Positions 14,412 through 21,481 of a DNA stretch of 22,489 bases are shown here, in pieces. The stretch is taken from positions 1-22,489 of IMG/VR virus record IMGVR_UViG_2778261588_000007; one strand, written 5' to 3'. Every line of letters begins with the position of its first letter. Positions within the stretch are counted from its first letter, which is position 1. This DNA comes from a virus (taxonomy: Duplodnaviria > Heunggongvirae > Uroviricota > Caudoviricetes). Made by a program: the position numbers and the translations under genes. Under the pieces are notes generated by a model. The model was not told where the DNA came from. It did not search any database and saw nothing but the letters and a program-made list of their open reading frames with translations.

Positions 14412-14897
14412 CTACCTGATATTACTGCTACTGTTGCATGTTACCGTGTTTCCAAATCCTGAATTGCAGTTTGTATATGTGTCAACGCGTGTTGGGTAAG
14501 GTTGAGTTATAACAGGCTGGCGCGCTTTTTGCTCGATCGCTTGCATTGTGTTTACAGCCTGATAATTCAATAAAGCCTGCTGGAATGATTGGCTTTGTGC
14601 TATTTGTTGGGCTTGTTCTTGGCTTTGTAATTGAACATAAAGATTCTGAAGCTCAAGTCTTGCCTGTGCGTCACTTATCTTGCCTTCATTGACACCTTGC
14701 CCGAGCATCTTTGCAGCAAGGACATACAGCTTAGGTGTTGGTGCTGATGCCATGCGTGAGTCGTTCTTCACACTGGCATCAAGGCAATTAGCCATATCGC
14801 TAAGCTTTTGATAGCGTTGTTCGCAACTTGCTTGATAGTCACTTACTTTTGCGCATCCAACCAGCAGAAGCGGGATAATTAACAGTGATTTTTTCAT
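14412..14897 (-). CDS. secreted lipoprotein of unknown function (candidate superinfection-exclusion factor)
   Basis: Start chosen at MKKSLLIIPLLLVGC (ATG at 14897) with AAGGAG about 9 nt upstream; lipobox L-V-G-C; mature part has a Gln-rich predicted helical segment and a C-terminal C-x9-C pair. Sits downstream of mnt on the same strand, at the position of sieA in P22. Confidence 0.7.
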   Translation of the reverse strand: MKKSLLIIPLLLVGCAKVSDYQASCEQRYQKLSDMANCLDASVKNDSRMASAPTPKLYVLAAKMLGQGVNEGKISDAQARLELQNLYVQLQSQEQAQQIAQSQSFQQALLNYQAVNTMQAIEQKARQPVITQPYPTRVDTYTNCNSGFGNTVTCNSSSNIR

Positions 14898-14967
14898 ATG
14901 GTTAACTCTCCTTAGTTTTTCACAGGATATCATGAAGGCTATGCCATTTTAGCCGGAAACTAGATTT

Positions 14968-15234
14968 CTATGTTTCCTTTTTATTATTGCTATACATGGT
15001 CTTAAGCGTTTCAAAAACCATTTTCTTAACCATATCAGATTGTTGTTCTGCCATACGCTCTGCATCGTCAATGTAAACGGATGCAGAGCTTTGTTTAGCC
15101 AATGATTCTTCAATCGCTGCAATTATCTCTGAGTTCAGCGACCTGTTATTCATCTTCGCACGCTGTTTAATTTTCGCGTGGAGTTCATGCGGAAGTCTCA
15201 AGTGAAACTGCGCCTCGTCGTATTTGCTGTACAT
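14968..15234 (-). CDS. mnt: Mnt-like ribbon-helix-helix repressor
   Basis: 88 aa from the internal ATG at 15234; FHLRLPHELHAKIKQRA..NRSLNSEII.AIEESLAK and DDAERMAEQQSDMVKKMVFETLK align with remembered P22 Mnt (83 aa) along its whole length. Confidence 0.8.
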   Translation of the reverse strand: MYSKYDEAQFHLRLPHELHAKIKQRAKMNNRSLNSEIIAAIEESLAKQSSASVYIDDAERMAEQQSDMVKKMVFETLKTMYSNNKKET

Positions 15235-15355
15235 CCTTGATGCCTCACCAGTTGGGTGGAATGGCATCGTAACCTACTGGATAAATACTCAATAGTACCA
15301 TTTCGGTATGCAATCACATCATGGTTGCATCATATCATTCGTCTGGAGCAATGAA
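15235..15355. promoter_or_regulatory. divergent intergenic region between mnt and tailspike; probable promoters and operator
   Basis: 121 bp non-coding; imperfect inverted repeats CCAGTTGG...CCTACTGG (15247-15279) and TGCAATCA...TGGTTGCA (15309-15329); tailspike RBS GGAG at 15345-15348. Confidence 0.35.
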
Positions 15356-17224
15356 ATGTCAGATATCACCGCAAACTTAGTGGTAGGGATGCCTGCGCAG
15401 CTTTTCACGCTGGCACGCTCATTTAAAGCAAATGCCAACGGTAAAATCTATCTTGGGCTACCAGATACCGACCCTACAATCCCAGCGAATCAAATCCCTG
15501 TTTATATTGAAAGTGAAACTGGAGATCTGATTCCGACTGCTCAGCCGATAGTCATTAACGCGGGTGGGTATCCTGTTTACAACGGGCAGATATCAAAGTT
15601 CGTTACTGTGCAGAATTACAGCATGGCTGTTTACGACGCCTATGGATCGCAGCAGTTCTACTTCCCTGACATTGCAAAATACGACCCAGATAAGTTAAGG
15701 CAACAGCTTGAAGGGAGCAATGGCGCTGGATTAGTTGGATTCGATAAATCAGTTGATTACGCAGATGATACGGTTGGGGGTACGCTAAAAAATGTTATAT
15801 TCGTCAATCCTGATATGTATACAACATTACAGGATGCGATTGATTATGCCGCATCTTTAACCGGGCTAGAGCACTCCCCAAGCACTGCTGCTGGTCATCC
15901 AGACTGGATACAACCAAATACTGTATGCAAAGTTGTCAGATTAAATGGAAAGAAATACCCCATAAACACAACATTACATGTTTACGGTGATGTAAGCATA
16001 GATGCAGAATTTGGAGGGGTATATCTCACGGATGACTTCATAGCGGATTCTTCTGGGTATGCTGTTAAATGCGATAAAGGAACAGGTAATCAATACGCTG
16101 GGCACATTAGCAATCTTTTAATTGACGCCCGCGCAAAGACTGTTAATGGATTTAAAATATCTGATGGTTATGCCAACAAGTTAGATGGTATTTACGTAGC
16201 CAACGTTGATGGTCATGGCATTCATATCGCTGGCGGCATGGGTGTTCATCTCATGAAGTTTTACGCGGTAGGTGTATTAAAACCTACGAACCCCCTAAGT
16301 CAAGCCCATATTATTGAAGGCAGCGACCATCAGGTAAGCATGGGTGAAGGTCGTTATTTCCGATTTGGGACGTGGGTGAGGGGTGGCGGTAACAATCGTA
16401 TCGATAAAGTACATAACTGGGGTATGTATGACGACTCGGTAGCTGACCAAAACTCAAGAATGAAGTGTTGCTTTGTTGTGCAAAACTCGATAAACAACTC
16501 ATTCAACCAATGCTTTGCAGACTCTCCGTCAAAATGGGACTACACGAAGGCTAATTTAGATTCGGTAGATGGTTATATTAACGGCGGTATTGGTTTCTTT
16601 GTCGATTCGGGAGCATCGGGTAATACGTTTTCTCAATGTCAGACATTCGTGAATATGAATGCATTCAATGCTGCGGGACTGTCTTCTTACACTGCATCAT
16701 TAATGCCGTTTGCCGTTGGTAGCGTTAACTGCTCATTTGTTGAGTGTGGAAACTCAAACTCACCAGCATGGACAGCAAGGTTGATAAACCATATTTACTC
16801 TATAGACCAGTCGTTTACAAACATCCTGGCAGCTAAGAACTTTGTTGGGATAGAGTACGATATGTTTAGCAATAGCACAATTTTTAGGAGAAGCGTAGGT
16901 GTTCCCCTGCTTGTAGCGTCTCCGAAATTTGACACCCCCGGTGCATCGTATGCGCCTGACTTTTCTAATGCAGCGTATGTGTCAGCAACGGTAACTGGCG
17001 ATGTAACAATAACCCCAGCAGCATTGTCAAATGCGTTAACTGGGTATGTAGAAGTTACATTAGCTGTTTATTCGGCGGCATCAAAAACAATAACATTCGG
17101 GTCTAACGTTAAACTTGCATCAAATACACCGTCGCTTTCATTTTCAGGAACGCAGGTATTTAGGCTTTCAACAATAAACGGCGGCACTCAATGGTTTTGC
17201 AGACTTATTGCTAACTACACATAA
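15356..17224 (+). CDS. tailspike protein: P22 gp9-like head-binding N-terminal domain fused to a divergent receptor-binding domain
   Basis: Start at ATG 15356 ([43 protein letters not shown]), 622 aa. The first ~115 residues match P22/Sf6 tailspike N-termini; the remainder has no P22 similarity I can recognise. Confidence 0.9.
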
Positions 17225-17253
17225 AAAATGGCCCGATGTTTTGGGCCTTTTTT
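17223..17253. terminator. bidirectional intrinsic terminator between the convergent tailspike and gtr operon
   Basis: AAAAAA - GGCCC..(8 nt loop)..GGGCC - TTTTTT, lying between the tailspike stop (17224) and the 3' end of the type-specific gtr gene (17258). Confidence 0.7.
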
Positions 17254-17257
17254 AATT

Positions 17258-18685
17258 TTAACAAACTCTATCGCCATACACGACGATAATATCTTCACCA
17301 ATTTTAAATACATTATAATATCTTGTTTTTATTATTGGTGATGATTTTTTTTCACAAACCTCATTTAACTTGTTAACTTGTACTGTTTTTATCCATGGTG
17401 CCAAATTCTTAACACTTAATTGCTGCATCATTGATACAGCAATCCATGGTACAGCAGGGCTATACACAAATTTGAGGAACGGTGTTGCCTCAATCATTTT
17501 CCAAGTAATAGGAGAGTCGTATATCCTTCCATAAGTGTATACCTCGCCGTTAAAGTCAAGCCTTCCCAAATCATTAGCCACCATCTCCATGACAAATTCC
17601 TCATATTTCCTTTGCTCTTTTATGGCATTTGAAAATTGGAATGAAGTGGTTATGGTGATAAACAACATTACTACAGAAATAAAATAAAAAGATTTTTTTC
17701 CGAATAATTTATATATGGAAAAAATAACTATCGCTATGGATGCTGACGCGCCTGATAGAACCCTTATATCTGTAATCCCTTCCTTTAATAAAAATGCTGG
17801 TCCAGGCAATGCTAATAATAGCGCTAATGGTGATAATAAATTGGATGAGCACTCTAAAAACCCTAGGGATAACTGATGTTTGACCTTTTTAACATAACAA
17901 ACAAAATAGGATAACAATCCAATGTAAACAGGAATCAAAAAAGATATCCCAATGGGTTCTATATATTTAAAAGTCTTATTAATAGATTCATAAAGAGATG
18001 ATGGTATGTCTGCGAATGACACCATTATAGATCTATTGTCAGCACCATATTTCATTATATAAAACATAGTGACATAATATAATGCATATGTTACTACGAA
18101 TGTCAGTGCAAGATGATATGATTTGTTTTTCCCATTACCAAATAAAGCATTGTATGCAATTAATGATATAAATATGTTTGCGCAAGGCTGGTATAAGCTT
18201 AAGCATGAAAATAAAGAAACAATGGATAATAATGACTTTGGAAATGATCTAATGTCAAATACAAAGAATGACAGCATACATAATGAATTTGCTAAAATCA
18301 TCGTTAATGCGTCAAATTGAAAAGACACGTTTTGTATAAACAATGGACTCACAAAAATGATTGTGAGCATAATGGATATCTGCAGAGAGTCTTCTTTTTC
18401 AACAAGATAATTACAAATATAATAAATTATTGCTGATGCAATGAATATACCAAAGAACAACGGAAGAGGAGCAGCGCTTGGTAATAAATCAAAATTAAGA
18501 GAAAAAATATGCATTACAAAATCAGAAAGTGGCCTACCAAGCCCTCCCCATGCAGAAAATGAATATACAGACCTTGCCACATCATCCCTATAAAGGACAT
18601 CAGCAGACACTATTGGGTAACAAAATATAAATATAATTGATAATGGTATGTAAAAATATTTAGAATTAAACATTCCTATTTTCAC
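17258..18685 (-). CDS. type-specific O-antigen glucosyltransferase (GtrC / Gtr-type), polytopic membrane protein
   Basis: 475 aa, many predicted TM helices, strongly AT-rich coding sequence; start overlaps the gtrB stop; third gene of a gtrA-gtrB-gtr(type) operon. Confidence 0.8.
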
Positions 18686-19595
18686 CTTTCTTTAGTATGT
18701 ACTTTGGTCTTTTTTTGGTTTCTATGTATATGCGTCCAATGTATTCACCAAGGACACCAATCCCAATCAATTGAATGCCGCCAAGGAAAAGTATGGAAAC
18801 CAACAGTGACGGGTATCCAGGAACACTATTACCGAAAAGAATCTTATCTAAAATCATCCACGCGCCATAAATGAATGACAGGCTGGCGACAGCAAGTCCG
18901 ATGTATGTCCACATGCGCAATGGGAAAGTTGAGAAGCTTGTTATGCCTTCCAGTGCCAGATTCCATAGCTTCCACCCATTGAATTTTGAGTTGCCGGCAA
19001 CGCGTTCAGCTCTTGCATACTCAACAACATCAATTTTACCGCCAACCCATGACAAGACGCCTTTCATGAAAAGATTGCGCTCAGGAAGCAATTTAATGTT
19101 TTCAACAACTTCTCGCGACATCAGGCGAAAATCACCCACGTTCTCTTCGATTTTTGGGTTGCTAATCTTGTTGTGTAGCTTATAGAACCACTCAGCCGAT
19201 TTGCGCTTTAGCCTTCCATCGGTAGATCGGTCTGTTCTCTTAGCCAGAACCATATCAGCGCCATCCTGCCATTTTTGAATGAGGTGAGGGATGACATTGA
19301 TAGGGTCTTGCAGATCAACATCAATTGGAATGACCGCTTCCCCGGTTGCATTATCAAGCCCTGCAAACAGGGCTGGTTCTTTACCAAAGTTTCGTGTAAA
19401 TGACAGCGGAACAACTAGAGGATCTGAAACGGACAGAGCGTTAATGATTGACTCCGTAGCGTCTTTGCTACCATCATTTATAAAAACAATTTCCACTTCA
19501 TATGGCTTCAACTCTTCGAATTCACGTACCGTTTTATAAAAAATAGGTATCGCTTCCTCTTCGTTGAAGACAGGAACGACCAGAGATATCTTCAT
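18666..19595 (-). CDS. gtrB: bactoprenol glucosyltransferase GtrB (GT2 family)
   Basis: 309 aa; N-terminal GT-A fold signatures ([25 protein letters not shown]) and two C-terminal TM helices; high similarity to remembered GtrB/YfdH. Confidence 0.9.
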
Positions 19596-19954
19596 TTCGC
19601 ATCCCTAAAGACAATGAACTTTGAATAGACGAAACCGCACACTAGGCTGATGGCGGAGAAGGTGACAAGAGTGACAATTGGAGGAAGTGCACATTTATCG
19701 GCAGCCCATCCAACAGTAGCACTCAGTGTTCCCATGAATCCTACATATAACATGTAGCGCATCGTTGTAGTCGAAGCTTTGAATGTGAATTTTGCATTCG
19801 CGAAGAAGCTAAAGCTCACAGCCACAACGAAACCTGCGAAGTTTGCAAGAGCCTGATTGGTGTGCGCGGCATAGATACATACACCAAAAACCACCCAATG
19901 TATAAGTGTGTTCAGCACACCAATCGAGGTGTACTTTGCAAATAGCTTTAACAT
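19592..19954 (-). CDS. gtrA: GtrA flippase-like small membrane protein
   Basis: 120 aa, four predicted TM segments; [20 protein letters not shown]... matches GtrA/YfdG; ATGA overlap with gtrB. Confidence 0.9.
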
Positions 19955-20100
19955 TTCTTCTATCAGCTAATAATCAAAGGCATGAAGTCTATCATCCAAG
20001 CATCAATCGATCGATGACTTGCTGTGGTTGATGAGACAAAACTGAGATACACAAGGCTTTGTGACATTCGATAGTGGTTAAGGTCGATCACTCCACCTTT
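19955..20100 (-). promoter_or_regulatory. gtr operon promoter region, overlapping the 3' end of int; contains GATC sites and ATAG/TCGAT motifs
   Basis: GATC at 20009-20012 and 20086-20089; repeated TCGAT/ATAG-containing motifs (ATCGATCGATGA, TTCGATAGTGG, GGTCGATCACTCC). Confidence 0.35.
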
Positions 20101-21245
20101 TCATCAAGCCAGTCCGCCCACCACTGCATCATTTCTCTGCGCTTATCGAGATACTGAGCATGGTTGTAAATCCCACGCACAGATCCGCCGTTGGCATGTG
20201 CCAGTTGCACTTCAATAGCATCAGCAGGCCATTCGTGCTCGTTCATAATCGTGCTGAATTCATGCCTGAATCCGTGACCGCTTTCCAGACCCTCATAGCC
20301 GATTTGTTTGATCACAAGCAGTACCGCGTTCTCGCAGATTGGCTTCTTCTTATCGTTGCGCCCGGCAAAAACAAACTCTGATACTGGTTTGGTGATTGAG
20401 CTTAGCGTAGTGAGAAGTTCAACCACCTGGTCTGACATAGGAACCACATGAATTTTGCGTCCTTTCATCACACTGGCGTCGATGGTGATAATCCTGTTTT
20501 CAAAATCGACGTTCTTCCATAGCATGGAACGAAGCTCTTTCGTTCTTAGGGCTGTGTAGCGTAAAACTTTGGTCGCAATGAGCGATACGATACTTCCTGA
20601 AAATGTTGCCAGTGCTTTGTTGAATGCAGGGATCTGGTCTGCAGGAAGAAACGGGAAGTTCTTCTTGCGGTATCCCTTCATGGCGTCAGCAAGGTCAGGT
20701 GCCGGGTTATATTTAGCCCTACCAGTGACAATAGCGTAACGGAAAACCTCGCCGCATCTTCTGCGGGCTTTGTTGGCTCGCTCCATTGCACCGCGATCTT
20801 CAAATCTGCGGATTACTTCCAACAGTTGCATCGGCTCAATATCCTGAATCTCAAGACCGCCGATGATGGGTAAAATGTCGTCATCAAACATTTTGGCAAG
20901 TTCAGTTGCATAGCCTACTGACCAGACTTGCTTCTTGTGCTCGTACCATTCCTTGTAAATCGCACTAAAGGAATTGTTGTTAGACGAAGCCTTTTTCGCC
21001 TTTACCGGATCGATGCCAACCGAGATGTCTTTCCTCGCAGTCCATGCTTTATCCCTTGCCTCTTGCAAAGTCATAAGCGGATATTTTCCGACGGTCAGGA
21101 TTTTCTCCTTACCGTCAATCTTGTAGCGAAGCTGCCATACCTTTTTCCCGGATACAGGGACATAAAGGTACAGGCCATTACCATCGAGAAGGCGGTATGG
21201 TTTTTCTTTCGGCCTTGCTGCTTCAATCTGCTTAACGGTGAGCAT
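20088..21245 (-). CDS. int: tyrosine recombinase / prophage integrase (argW-associated, IntS-like)
   Basis: Start chosen at MLTVKQIEAARPKEK (ATG at 21245), 385 aa; C-terminal catalytic region GHGFRHEF...LAHANGGSVRGIYNHAQY (His-x-x-Arg and Tyr nucleophile); lies directly beside a tRNA gene. Confidence 0.9.
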   Translation of the reverse strand: MLTVKQIEAARPKEKPYRLLDGNGLYLYVPVSGKKVWQLRYKIDGKEKILTVGKYPLMTLQEARDKAWTARKDISVGIDPVKAKKASSNNNSFSAIYKEWYEHKKQVWSVGYATELAKMFDDDILPIIGGLEIQDIEPMQLLEVIRRFEDRGAMERANKARRRCGEVFRYAIVTGRAKYNPAPDLADAMKGYRKKNFPFLPADQIPAFNKALATFSGSIVSLIATKVLRYTALRTKELRSMLWKNVDFENRIITIDASVMKGRKIHVVPMSDQVVELLTTLSSITKPVSEFVFAGRNDKKKPICENAVLLVIKQIGYEGLESGHGFRHEFSTIMNEHEWPADAIEVQLAHANGGSVRGIYNHAQYLDKRREMMQWWADWLDEKVE

Positions 21246-21406
21246 GGGTAAAAATCCGGTGGGTAAAATTATTTTATCCACTTTTTACCCGTCATGGAGT
21301 GCGGCTGTCAACGATCTGACGCGAACCATTACGAACTGTTAATCTACGGAAGGCTTGATATTCAGGGGATTTTGCGGACTGGTACGGATGGGAGCGAACT
21401 GATAAA

Positions 21407-21481
21407 TGGTGTCCCCTGCAGGAATCGAACCTGCAATTAGCCCTTAGGAGGGGCTCGTTATATCCATTTAACTAAGAGGAC
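21407..21481 (-). tRNA. argW: tRNA-Arg (anticodon CCU), argW
   Basis: 75 nt on the minus strand: GTCCTCT acceptor stem, anticodon arm AGCCC-CTCCTAA-GGGCT (anticodon CCU), T arm GCAGG-TTCGATT-CCTGC, 3' CCA encoded. Folded by eye into a cloverleaf. Confidence 0.9.

Follow-up and report, generated by a model that had tools for sequence, protein, structure and literature searches.

Which surface glycan is modified by a phage-borne glucosyltransferase that matches none of the characterised enzymes with which it was compared? This question is raised by the operon gtrA-gtrB-gtrC at positions 17258-19954 of the IMG/VR virus record IMGVR_UViG_2778261588_000007 (Caudoviricetes), of which the whole 22,489-nucleotide stretch was analysed and is referred to below as the window. 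The original prediction recognised the operon as an O-antigen glucosylation cassette, supposed to set the host serotype and probably to block the receptor of the prophage's own tailspike. Our analysis makes it very likely that the operon is a functional lysogenic-conversion cassette of a P22-like prophage at argW, with GtrC glucosylating the O-antigen. While the cassette itself will not surprise a specialist, two points are added here. Sequence comparison indicates that gtrC co-diverges with the receptor-binding domain of the neighbouring tailspike, and the product is possibly an undescribed glucosylated O153-type antigen.

The gtr cassette and its type-specific enzyme

The cassette and its upstream region comprise the following features:

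17258-18673, minus strand: gtrC, or gtr(type), 471 amino acids from an ATG; type-specific polytopic GT-C glucosyltransferase
18666-19595, minus strand: gtrB, 309 amino acids; GT2 bactoprenol (undecaprenyl phosphate, Und-P) glucosyltransferase; PF00535 Glycos_transf_2, E 2e-30
19592-19954, minus strand: gtrA, 120 amino acids; PF04138 GtrA_DPMS_TM, E 2e-13; phrog_2224, E 3e-70
19955-20087, minus strand: spacer between int and gtrA, 133 bp; gtr upstream/regulatory region

The three co-directional open reading frames (ORFs) lie on the minus strand at the coordinates predicted earlier, are all full-length and intact, and stand in the order A-B-type, in a temperate phage, between int/att and the tailspike gene, which is the arrangement that marks such a cassette. 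Adjacent genes overlap, which fits translational coupling: 4 nucleotides (nt) are common to the gtrA stop and the gtrB start, and 8 nt to gtrB and gtrC when the latter is read from the ATG at 18673. PHROGs assigned each of the three genes to an O-antigen-conversion family, in agreement with Pfam. GtrA is a small four-helix membrane protein and the proposed flippase for undecaprenyl-phosphate-glucose; its amino acid identity is 100% with GtrA of phage Hf4s, 97% with YfdG of Escherichia coli K-12, 91% with SfII GtrA and 78% with P22 GtrA. GtrB is 89% identical to the GtrB proteins of SfII and Hf4s and 87% identical to that of P22, and its residues 2-301 match the solved structure of Synechocystis GtrB (5EKP, E 1e-87). 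Because of the GtrB homology to SfII, P22 and 5EKP, the lipid-linked donor is almost certainly undecaprenyl-phosphate-glucose. GtrC matches PF14264 Glucos_trans_II with 77.8 bits, the cut-off being 30 (E 1e-21), with residues 27-315 covering model positions 5-313 of 317. The family calls made earlier for GtrA, GtrB and the type-specific GtrC were thus correct according to Pfam, PHROGs and homologue identities, and by its sequence the locus is a gtr lysogenic-conversion cassette that displays each defining feature checkable in silico.

The original prediction gave the type-specific protein 475 amino acids, a length that it could match to no characterised enzyme. This length is obtained when the ORF is extended to an upstream GTG at 18685 (17258-18685). 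All homologues, as well as the RefSeq entries for near-identical genes, start at the ATG at 18673 (MFNSKYF/MLKSRFF), so a length of 471 amino acids is more likely. The absence of a length match was borne out, the characterised enzymes that were checked having 506, 486, 437, 417, 486, 443 and 410 amino acids.

Sequence searches indicate that GtrC is none of the characterised Gtr enzymes tested, and its specificity is uncharacterised. The best characterised match in BLASTP was P22 GtrC, with 25% identity over the full length, while GtrI, GtrII, GtrIV, GtrV, K-12 YfdI and Hf4s GtrC gave no significant match; this characterised set left out GtrX and GtrIc as individual entries. A translated search of 50,697 phage records returned nothing above 29% identity. 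Hence no characterised Gtr enzyme identical to GtrC was found, neither in the set nor in the phage records. In the protein database, 66 E. coli sequences with 99% identity to GtrC form a single 90%-identity cluster. The next relatives are a metagenomic protein (62%), a protein of Proteus mirabilis (55%) and a second E. coli allele, type 2 (49-50%). The allele is rare: the whole gtr operon was found in four of 5,426 complete E. coli genomes, at 93.5-94.2% nt identity. It is also present in an IMG/VR contig that is 99.6% identical along 7 kb. A ratio of nonsynonymous to synonymous substitutions (dN/dS) of 0.12-0.18 for gtrC (0.12 for the type 2 allele) points to purifying selection. The wider family is large: an exhaustive profile search found 1,878 cluster representatives at E <= 1e-3, and a word-indexed protein search found few relatives (12-15).

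A confident structure model of GtrC shows the conserved multi-helix GT-C membrane fold; fold comparison was needed here because a sequence search against PDB chains gave no match even at E <= 1. The model helices, combined with the positive-inside rule (K/R-rich loops at about residues 139-147, 178-187, 261-269 and 321-329), predict eleven transmembrane helices, an N-terminus inside the cell and a C-terminal periplasmic domain of ~100 residues. Residues Y28, D31, W42, G46, R47, P69, P110, N115, Y161, Q162, Y199 and R304 are invariant in homologues down to 20% identity, and D30 is nearly invariant. On predicted periplasmic loops would lie Y28, D30, D31, R34, W42, G46, R47, P110-D121, Y161-N166 and R304. 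D30 and D31 directly follow the first transmembrane helix, their side of the membrane being deduced from the same rule and model helices. GT-C enzymes carry a catalytic acid right after the first helix (the DD motif position), and the putative catalytic residues of GtrC are put forward as candidates only.

Several known systems resemble the cassette. The gtrABC genes of P22 (GtrC family I, O1 factor) belong to the same phage type and show the same order int-gtrA-gtrB-gtrC, convergent with the tailspike gene and with a common terminator; P22 GtrC belongs to the same Pfam family, with 486 versus 471 amino acids and the same GC content of 31.8%. However, besides the low identity of the two GtrC proteins, P22 integrates at thrW, has its attP between int and gtrA, possesses a four-GATC Dam/OxyR region and has a tailspike with an unrelated receptor-binding domain. 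Hf4s, likewise a P22-like phage of E. coli, has its IntS-type integrase gene arranged in the same way, and its cassette abolishes self-adsorption in lysogens. Its type-specific protein is however unrelated (410 amino acids, epsilon34/DUF6056-like, no BLAST similarity), it has another tailspike and the O-antigen of its host is O22-like. The phages SfI, SfII, SfIV and SfV follow the same cassette logic, with gtrA/gtrB at 83% nt identity, an upstream region of the same type and type genes of 32-33% GC. GtrI, GtrII, GtrIV and GtrV are nevertheless without significant BLAST similarity to the window GtrC, although the Pfam family is named after GtrII. The Sf phages do not belong to the P22-like type, the regions retrieved from them having no P22-type structural genes, and their cassettes adjoin tail-fibre genes or insertion elements instead of a tailspike gene. 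The yfdG-yfdH-yfdI genes of the K-12 element CPS-53/KpLE1 occupy the same chromosomal site, yfdC-argW-intS, but YfdI (443 amino acids, 27.6% GC) is unrelated to the window GtrC and the element is a remnant of another phage type.

The type-specific gene had been described as visibly AT-rich, which was considered consistent with horizontal acquisition. The first part of this statement holds. The GC content is 31.8% in gtrC (27% at third codon positions), compared to 42.9% in gtrB, 44.6% in gtrA, 47.6% in int and 49.3% in the first 15 kb, and the sliding-window minimum of 30% falls at 18001-18500. The second part does not follow from low GC. In a comparison of ten cassettes (those of P22, SfI, SfII, SfIV, SfV, Hf4s and K-12, and three from E. 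coli prophages, one of them the window) the GC content was 27.6-38% for the type gene and 40-46% for gtrA/gtrB; the Proteus gtrC has 26.7%. Low GC is a standing property of type-specific gtr genes and, since all those compared are similarly AT-rich, it was rejected as a sign that the gene entered this phage recently.

Recent exchange of gtrC itself among related prophages is indicated by their nucleotide sequences. Between the window and the relatives L003 and MLI106K1, gtrC and the terminator are 98.9-100% identical (synonymous divergence, dS, 0.03-0.05), within a shared tract that spans ~17100 to 18900; for gtrB (dS 0.68) and the receptor-binding domain of the tailspike (dS 0.61) they carry alleles that diverged long ago. 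The head-binding part of the tailspike gene is only 69% identical in nt to that of L003 and the neighbouring mnt gene 99.7%, marking another recombination junction.

Pairing of gtrC with the tailspike receptor-binding domain

The tailspike gene and gtrC converge on a hairpin:

15356-17224, plus strand: tailspike, 622 amino acids from an ATG (M17 of a 638-amino-acid ORF); PF09008, E 9e-56
17230-17247, both strands: GC-rich hairpin with T-runs on both sides; terminator scan positive on both strands

The hairpin is 100% conserved in relatives and should act as a bidirectional terminator shared by the two genes. The tailspike has an N-terminal P22-type head-binding domain, and its receptor-binding domain starts at about residue 114 (window ~15695). 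Read as the longest ORF, the tailspike gene (638 amino acids) begins 16 codons (15308-15355, plus strand) before the MSDITAN start common to all relatives.

In ten E. coli and IMG/VR loci, GtrC of the window's type (type 1) was always found beside receptor-binding domain type 1 (6 loci) and GtrC type 2, 49% identical to type 1, always beside an unrelated domain type 2 (4 loci). The gtrB alleles in these loci assort independently of both. Identities of GtrC and of the receptor-binding domain were as follows:

Window versus MLI106K1: GtrC 99%, receptor-binding domain 89%
Window versus metagenome L023: GtrC 62%, receptor-binding domain 64%
Window versus Proteus L021: GtrC 55%, receptor-binding domain 59%
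FG31-1 versus L016 (both type 2): GtrC 96%, receptor-binding domain 76%
FG31-1 versus L026 (both type 2): GtrC 69%, receptor-binding domain 71%

In pairs with a GtrC identity of 52% or less the receptor-binding domains have no meaningful similarity. An outlier to this tracking is the comparison of metagenome and Proteus, with 53% identity for GtrC but 74% for the receptor-binding domain. The sister alleles, E. coli type 2 (P0004/FG31-1), the P. mirabilis prophage (P0003) and the metagenomic one (P0002), belong to the same subfamily (49-62%), encode proteins of 471-474 amino acids, have the same gtrA-gtrB-gtrC order convergent with a tailspike gene, and are all uncharacterised. The Proteus and metagenomic receptor-binding domains are 59-64% identical to that of the window; the domain found beside the type 2 allele is unrelated. 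The Proteus and metagenomic prophages have lambda-like tail genes and another N-terminal tailspike anchor (PF18668). The pairing is kept while gtrB, the tailspike N-terminal anchor, the phage type and the host genus all change. These comparisons indicate that gtrC and the tailspike receptor-binding domain co-diverge across phage types and genera.

Such co-divergence is the pattern expected if GtrC modifies the glycan bound by the neighbouring tailspike. Hf4s, a coliphage for which seroconversion of the host has been demonstrated experimentally, loses adsorption to its own lysogens (10.1101/2021.06.09.447823). By analogy with this phage, which has identical gtrA and upstream regions, and in view of the co-divergence, there is indirect support for the earlier proposal that GtrC may mask the receptor of the prophage's own tailspike. 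As a practical rule, the acceptor of an unknown GtrC might then be predicted from the specificity of the neighbouring tailspike, and vice versa.

The receptor-binding domain of the window (15695-17224) is 84% identical at the amino acid level to tailspikes of four large virulent Kuttervirus phages, vB_SalM-ps4, YX22, BME3 and vB_CECAV_050, while phage EcoIv28_Lewi matches its C-terminal half at 81%; the domain was found in only five phage records. This suggests that the domain has been exchanged between temperate podoviruses and virulent myoviruses. A more speculative reading, which we hold to be possible but rather doubtful, is that the unit is not the operon but a portable two-gene module for recognising and masking, consisting of the receptor-binding domain and gtrC around one bidirectional terminator, which would move between phage morphotypes and genera and in E. 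coli would make an undescribed glucosylated O153/O178-type form. The range of such a module may comprise P22-like and lambda-like-tailed phages of Escherichia and Proteus, with the domain alone passing into virulent Kuttervirus.

Five complete E. coli genomes (H200-H204) carry ~69% of the type 1 domain, at 85.5% nt identity, at a second locus away from argW (for example NZ_CP142680.1 1360967-1362001). At least three of them (FG31-1, OY754353 and 2017.15.01CC) have the O153-type O-antigen cluster discussed below, and in at least two (FG31-1 and OY754353) argW is additionally occupied by a gtr cassette, which in FG31-1 is the type 2 allele with its own tailspike. A prophage that has lambda-like tail genes and lies immediately next to mlaA and fadL (L024 2911-9282) carries a gtrC gene with 30% identity. 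Its location is the same neighbourhood as argW/yfdC in E. coli, suggesting an insertion hotspot common to another phage type.

Proposed acceptor, expression and mechanism

The O-antigen locus of MLI106K1 (L011 6450-13321) has the gene order gnu-galF-GT-hypothetical(588 aa)-GT-wzy-GT-wzx-gnd, GT denoting a glycosyltransferase gene, and holds no sugar-synthesis genes. This gene content agrees with the account of O153/O178, in which gnu precedes galF, the repeat contains ribofuranose and the glycosyltransferases number one fewer than expected (Liu et al., PMC7685785). The 6.3-kb cluster also occurs with 100% identity in CFSAN061763 and CFSAN061768, and in total in 78 of the 5,426 complete genomes. 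Three of the four complete-genome carriers of gtrC have the O-antigen cluster of strain 2011C-4315 (serotyped O153:H2). In the fourth carrier, TST3, the cluster was not located by coordinate offset, the genome being rearranged and the stretches unrelated. Only nine of the complete genomes have the type 1 receptor-binding domain; the four gtrC carriers all belong to these nine, of which at least six carry the O153-type cluster. Since the domain-bearing genomes mostly have this cluster, and in view of the clusters of the carriers, an O153/O178-type O unit is the most likely acceptor, although we give this assignment only an even chance of being right. TSP3, the O153-specific tailspike of phage AV101, was looked for among the domain homologues and not found; the five phage records with this domain do not include AV101, so the tailspike provides no independent confirmation of O153.

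Serotype data for strains with this cluster are conflicting. Strain-name searches of the literature yielded no serotype for CFSAN061763 or MLI106K1. SMS-3-5, which we take to be of serotype O19:H34, carries the O153-type cluster; a coordinate-offset look-up of its argW region gave an unrelated stretch, as this genome is rearranged. The cluster (100%, 6.3 kb) is found both in 2011C-4315, serotype O153:H2 (PMC4929515), and in TW11681, published as O19:H45 (PMC6630672), and the O153 reference sequence is disputed (DebRoy et al., PMC4732683). If the proposed acceptor is correct, a glucosylated O153/O178-type form could contribute to the conflicting O153 and O19 serotypes.

The spacer between int and gtrA is identical to that of Hf4s and aligns with those of K-12 CPS-53, SfI, SfII and SfV. 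One GATC site lies near gtrA and another at the int stop codon. For Salmonella gtr operons, four GATC sites in two pairs within OxyR half-sites are the criterion for Dam/OxyR phase variation (PMC3688519), and the P22 upstream region indeed shows GATC in this number and pairing (13 nt apart). The upstream region in the window lacks this signature and is of the Shigella/K-12 type instead. Since the four-GATC signature is absent, and since no evidence of phase variation is reported for the Shigella operon (PMC3688519), expression of the gtr genes is probably non-phase-variable, being constitutive or otherwise free of Dam/OxyR control. The spacer further contains a motif, CAAAGCCTTG(T/C), at window 20030-20075 (minus strand). 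It occurs once in the window, Hf4s and CFSAN061763 and twice, through a 20-nt insertion, in K-12 and L003. Similar repeats are found near attP in P22 and Sf phages and are possibly arm-type sites of the integrase.

In the proposed mechanism GtrB, at the cytoplasmic face, would transfer glucose from UDP-glucose to undecaprenyl phosphate, and the resulting Und-P-glucose would reach the periplasmic face via GtrA. GtrC, as an 11-helix GT-C enzyme, would then put the glucose on one particular hydroxyl of the growing O-antigen repeat. The acceptor would most likely be the O-antigen bound by the prophage's own tailspike. Lysogens would consequently stop adsorbing this phage and others with the same receptor-binding domain, and would change antigenically. 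Expression would probably be constitutive or otherwise outside Dam/OxyR phase variation.

Several findings weigh against a working cassette with this acceptor. A consensus scan upstream of gtrA found no sigma-70 match of at least 9/12 on the minus strand. The wzx gene of MLI106K1 is cut by IS1 (L011 12143-14532) while gtrABC is intact there, and the tailspike gene of CFSAN061763 is a pseudogene (L001 4099-5964), truncated in its head-binding part and with a receptor-binding domain that is still detectable by tblastn; in some hosts the cassette may therefore be without a substrate, or there may be no phage left to exclude. As gtrC adjoins the tailspike gene, physical linkage may explain part of the co-inheritance, and the loci compared for co-divergence are not independent samples. 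The acceptor was assigned via relatives with a gtrC that is 98.5-98.7% identical but a tailspike domain that is only 89% identical. We know of no glucose side branch in the published O153/O178 structures, so the modification would be one not yet described, or else GtrC acts on a different acceptor.

The missing promoter match and the damaged relatives, together with the CPS-53 gtrB gene interrupted by IS3 in the K-12 derivative GM4792 and the several Salmonella gtr families without a visible shift in lipopolysaccharide (LPS) (PMC3688519), could also mean that the cassette is a silent or decaying moron, intact by chance and, for want of expression or an acceptor, without phenotype. We consider this improbable in view of the three full-length ORFs with coupled starts, the low dN/dS of gtrC and an upstream region identical to that of Hf4s, whose cassette works in lysogens. 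The gtr genes are intact even where the tailspike has decayed, which suggests selection for gtr. Somewhat less improbable, though still unlikely, is an acceptor other than an O153/O178-type O-antigen, whether another O-antigen or another surface glycan such as the LPS core, enterobacterial common antigen or a capsule. The reliance on relatives, the absence of AV101 TSP3 among the domain homologues, the TST3 cluster that was not located and the presence of a different gtrC/tailspike pair in strains with the same O-antigen cluster would all fit such an acceptor. Yet all characterised members of this cassette type act on O-antigen (PMC7685785, PMC3688519), the linked tailspike is built like O-antigen-specific tailspikes and has its domain in common with Kuttervirus tailspikes, and the O153-type cluster, found in at least six of the nine domain-bearing genomes, is rare among complete genomes overall. 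That the type-specific protein is another kind of O-antigen modifier and not a glucosyltransferase is the least probable reading. The name GtrC does span unrelated proteins: the family II 'GtrC' of BTP1 is not a Glucos_trans_II protein, and the Hf4s/epsilon34 'GtrC' is a DUF6056 protein without similarity to that of the window. The Glucos_trans_II score well above cut-off, the full-length alignment with P22 GtrC, the GT-C fold without any match to an acyltransferase family and the intact gtrA and gtrB genes to supply Und-P-glucose nevertheless argue for a glucosyltransferase. An O-antigen glucosylation cassette that functions in lysogenic conversion thus remains the preferred reading.

Glucosylation of O-antigen side branches alters serotype, antibody recognition and phage susceptibility, and is invisible to in-silico O-typing, which reads the rfb locus only. 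The O153 serogroup includes strains producing Shiga toxin and strains producing extended-spectrum beta-lactamases. Because the tailspike domain is shared with virulent Kuttervirus phages, lysogens with this cassette are candidates for resistance to those phages that bear the 84%-identical domain.

Prophage setting and neighbouring genes

Sequence matches along its length identify the window as the right arm of a prophage of the P22-like type (Lederbergvirus) that has inserted at E. coli argW. Its first 15 kb correspond to genes of further P22-like phages and prophages, namely those for portal, coat, gp10 and DNA ejection. Downstream of these follow a Mnt/Arc-type repressor gene, the tailspike gene, the gtr cassette, an IntS-type integrase gene, argW and yfdC. 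The remaining features are:

14412-14933, minus strand: ORF between the gp16-like ejection gene and mnt, where P22 has sieA
14968-15267, minus strand: 99-amino-acid protein with an Arc-like ribbon-helix-helix and a Mnt C-terminal domain
20088-21281, minus strand: IntS-type tyrosine integrase; PF00589, PF22022, PF13356; annotated intS in relatives
21407-21481, minus strand: tRNA-Arg(CCT), argW, the attachment site; ARAGORN; Rfam 63 bits
21557-22489: yfdC, 99.9% identical to E. coli sequences

The integrase probably starts at the ATG at 21245, giving 385 amino acids. Apart from the tRNA, the Rfam scan found nothing in the window. Similarity to free-phage genomes, and likewise to the IMG/VR contig, breaks off at 21420/21421, within the tRNA at its 3' end, which places the end of the prophage at ~21420. 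Because of the near-identity of yfdC to E. coli sequences, the host would be E. coli or Shigella.

The Mnt-like repressor gene is divergent from the tailspike gene directly downstream. The genes arc and ant and the sar RNA are not present in the window, and the immI region is thus reduced compared to that of P22. The neighbouring ORF at 14412-14933 was considered as SieA and rejected, having no similarity to P22 SieA, and a comparison with the PADLOC defence families gave no match. From an internal Met it encodes a predicted lipoprotein of 161 amino acids that carries the lipobox MKKSLLIIPLLLVGC and falls into PHROG 6067, a family of unknown function. A second role at the surface or in exclusion may be considered for this candidate.

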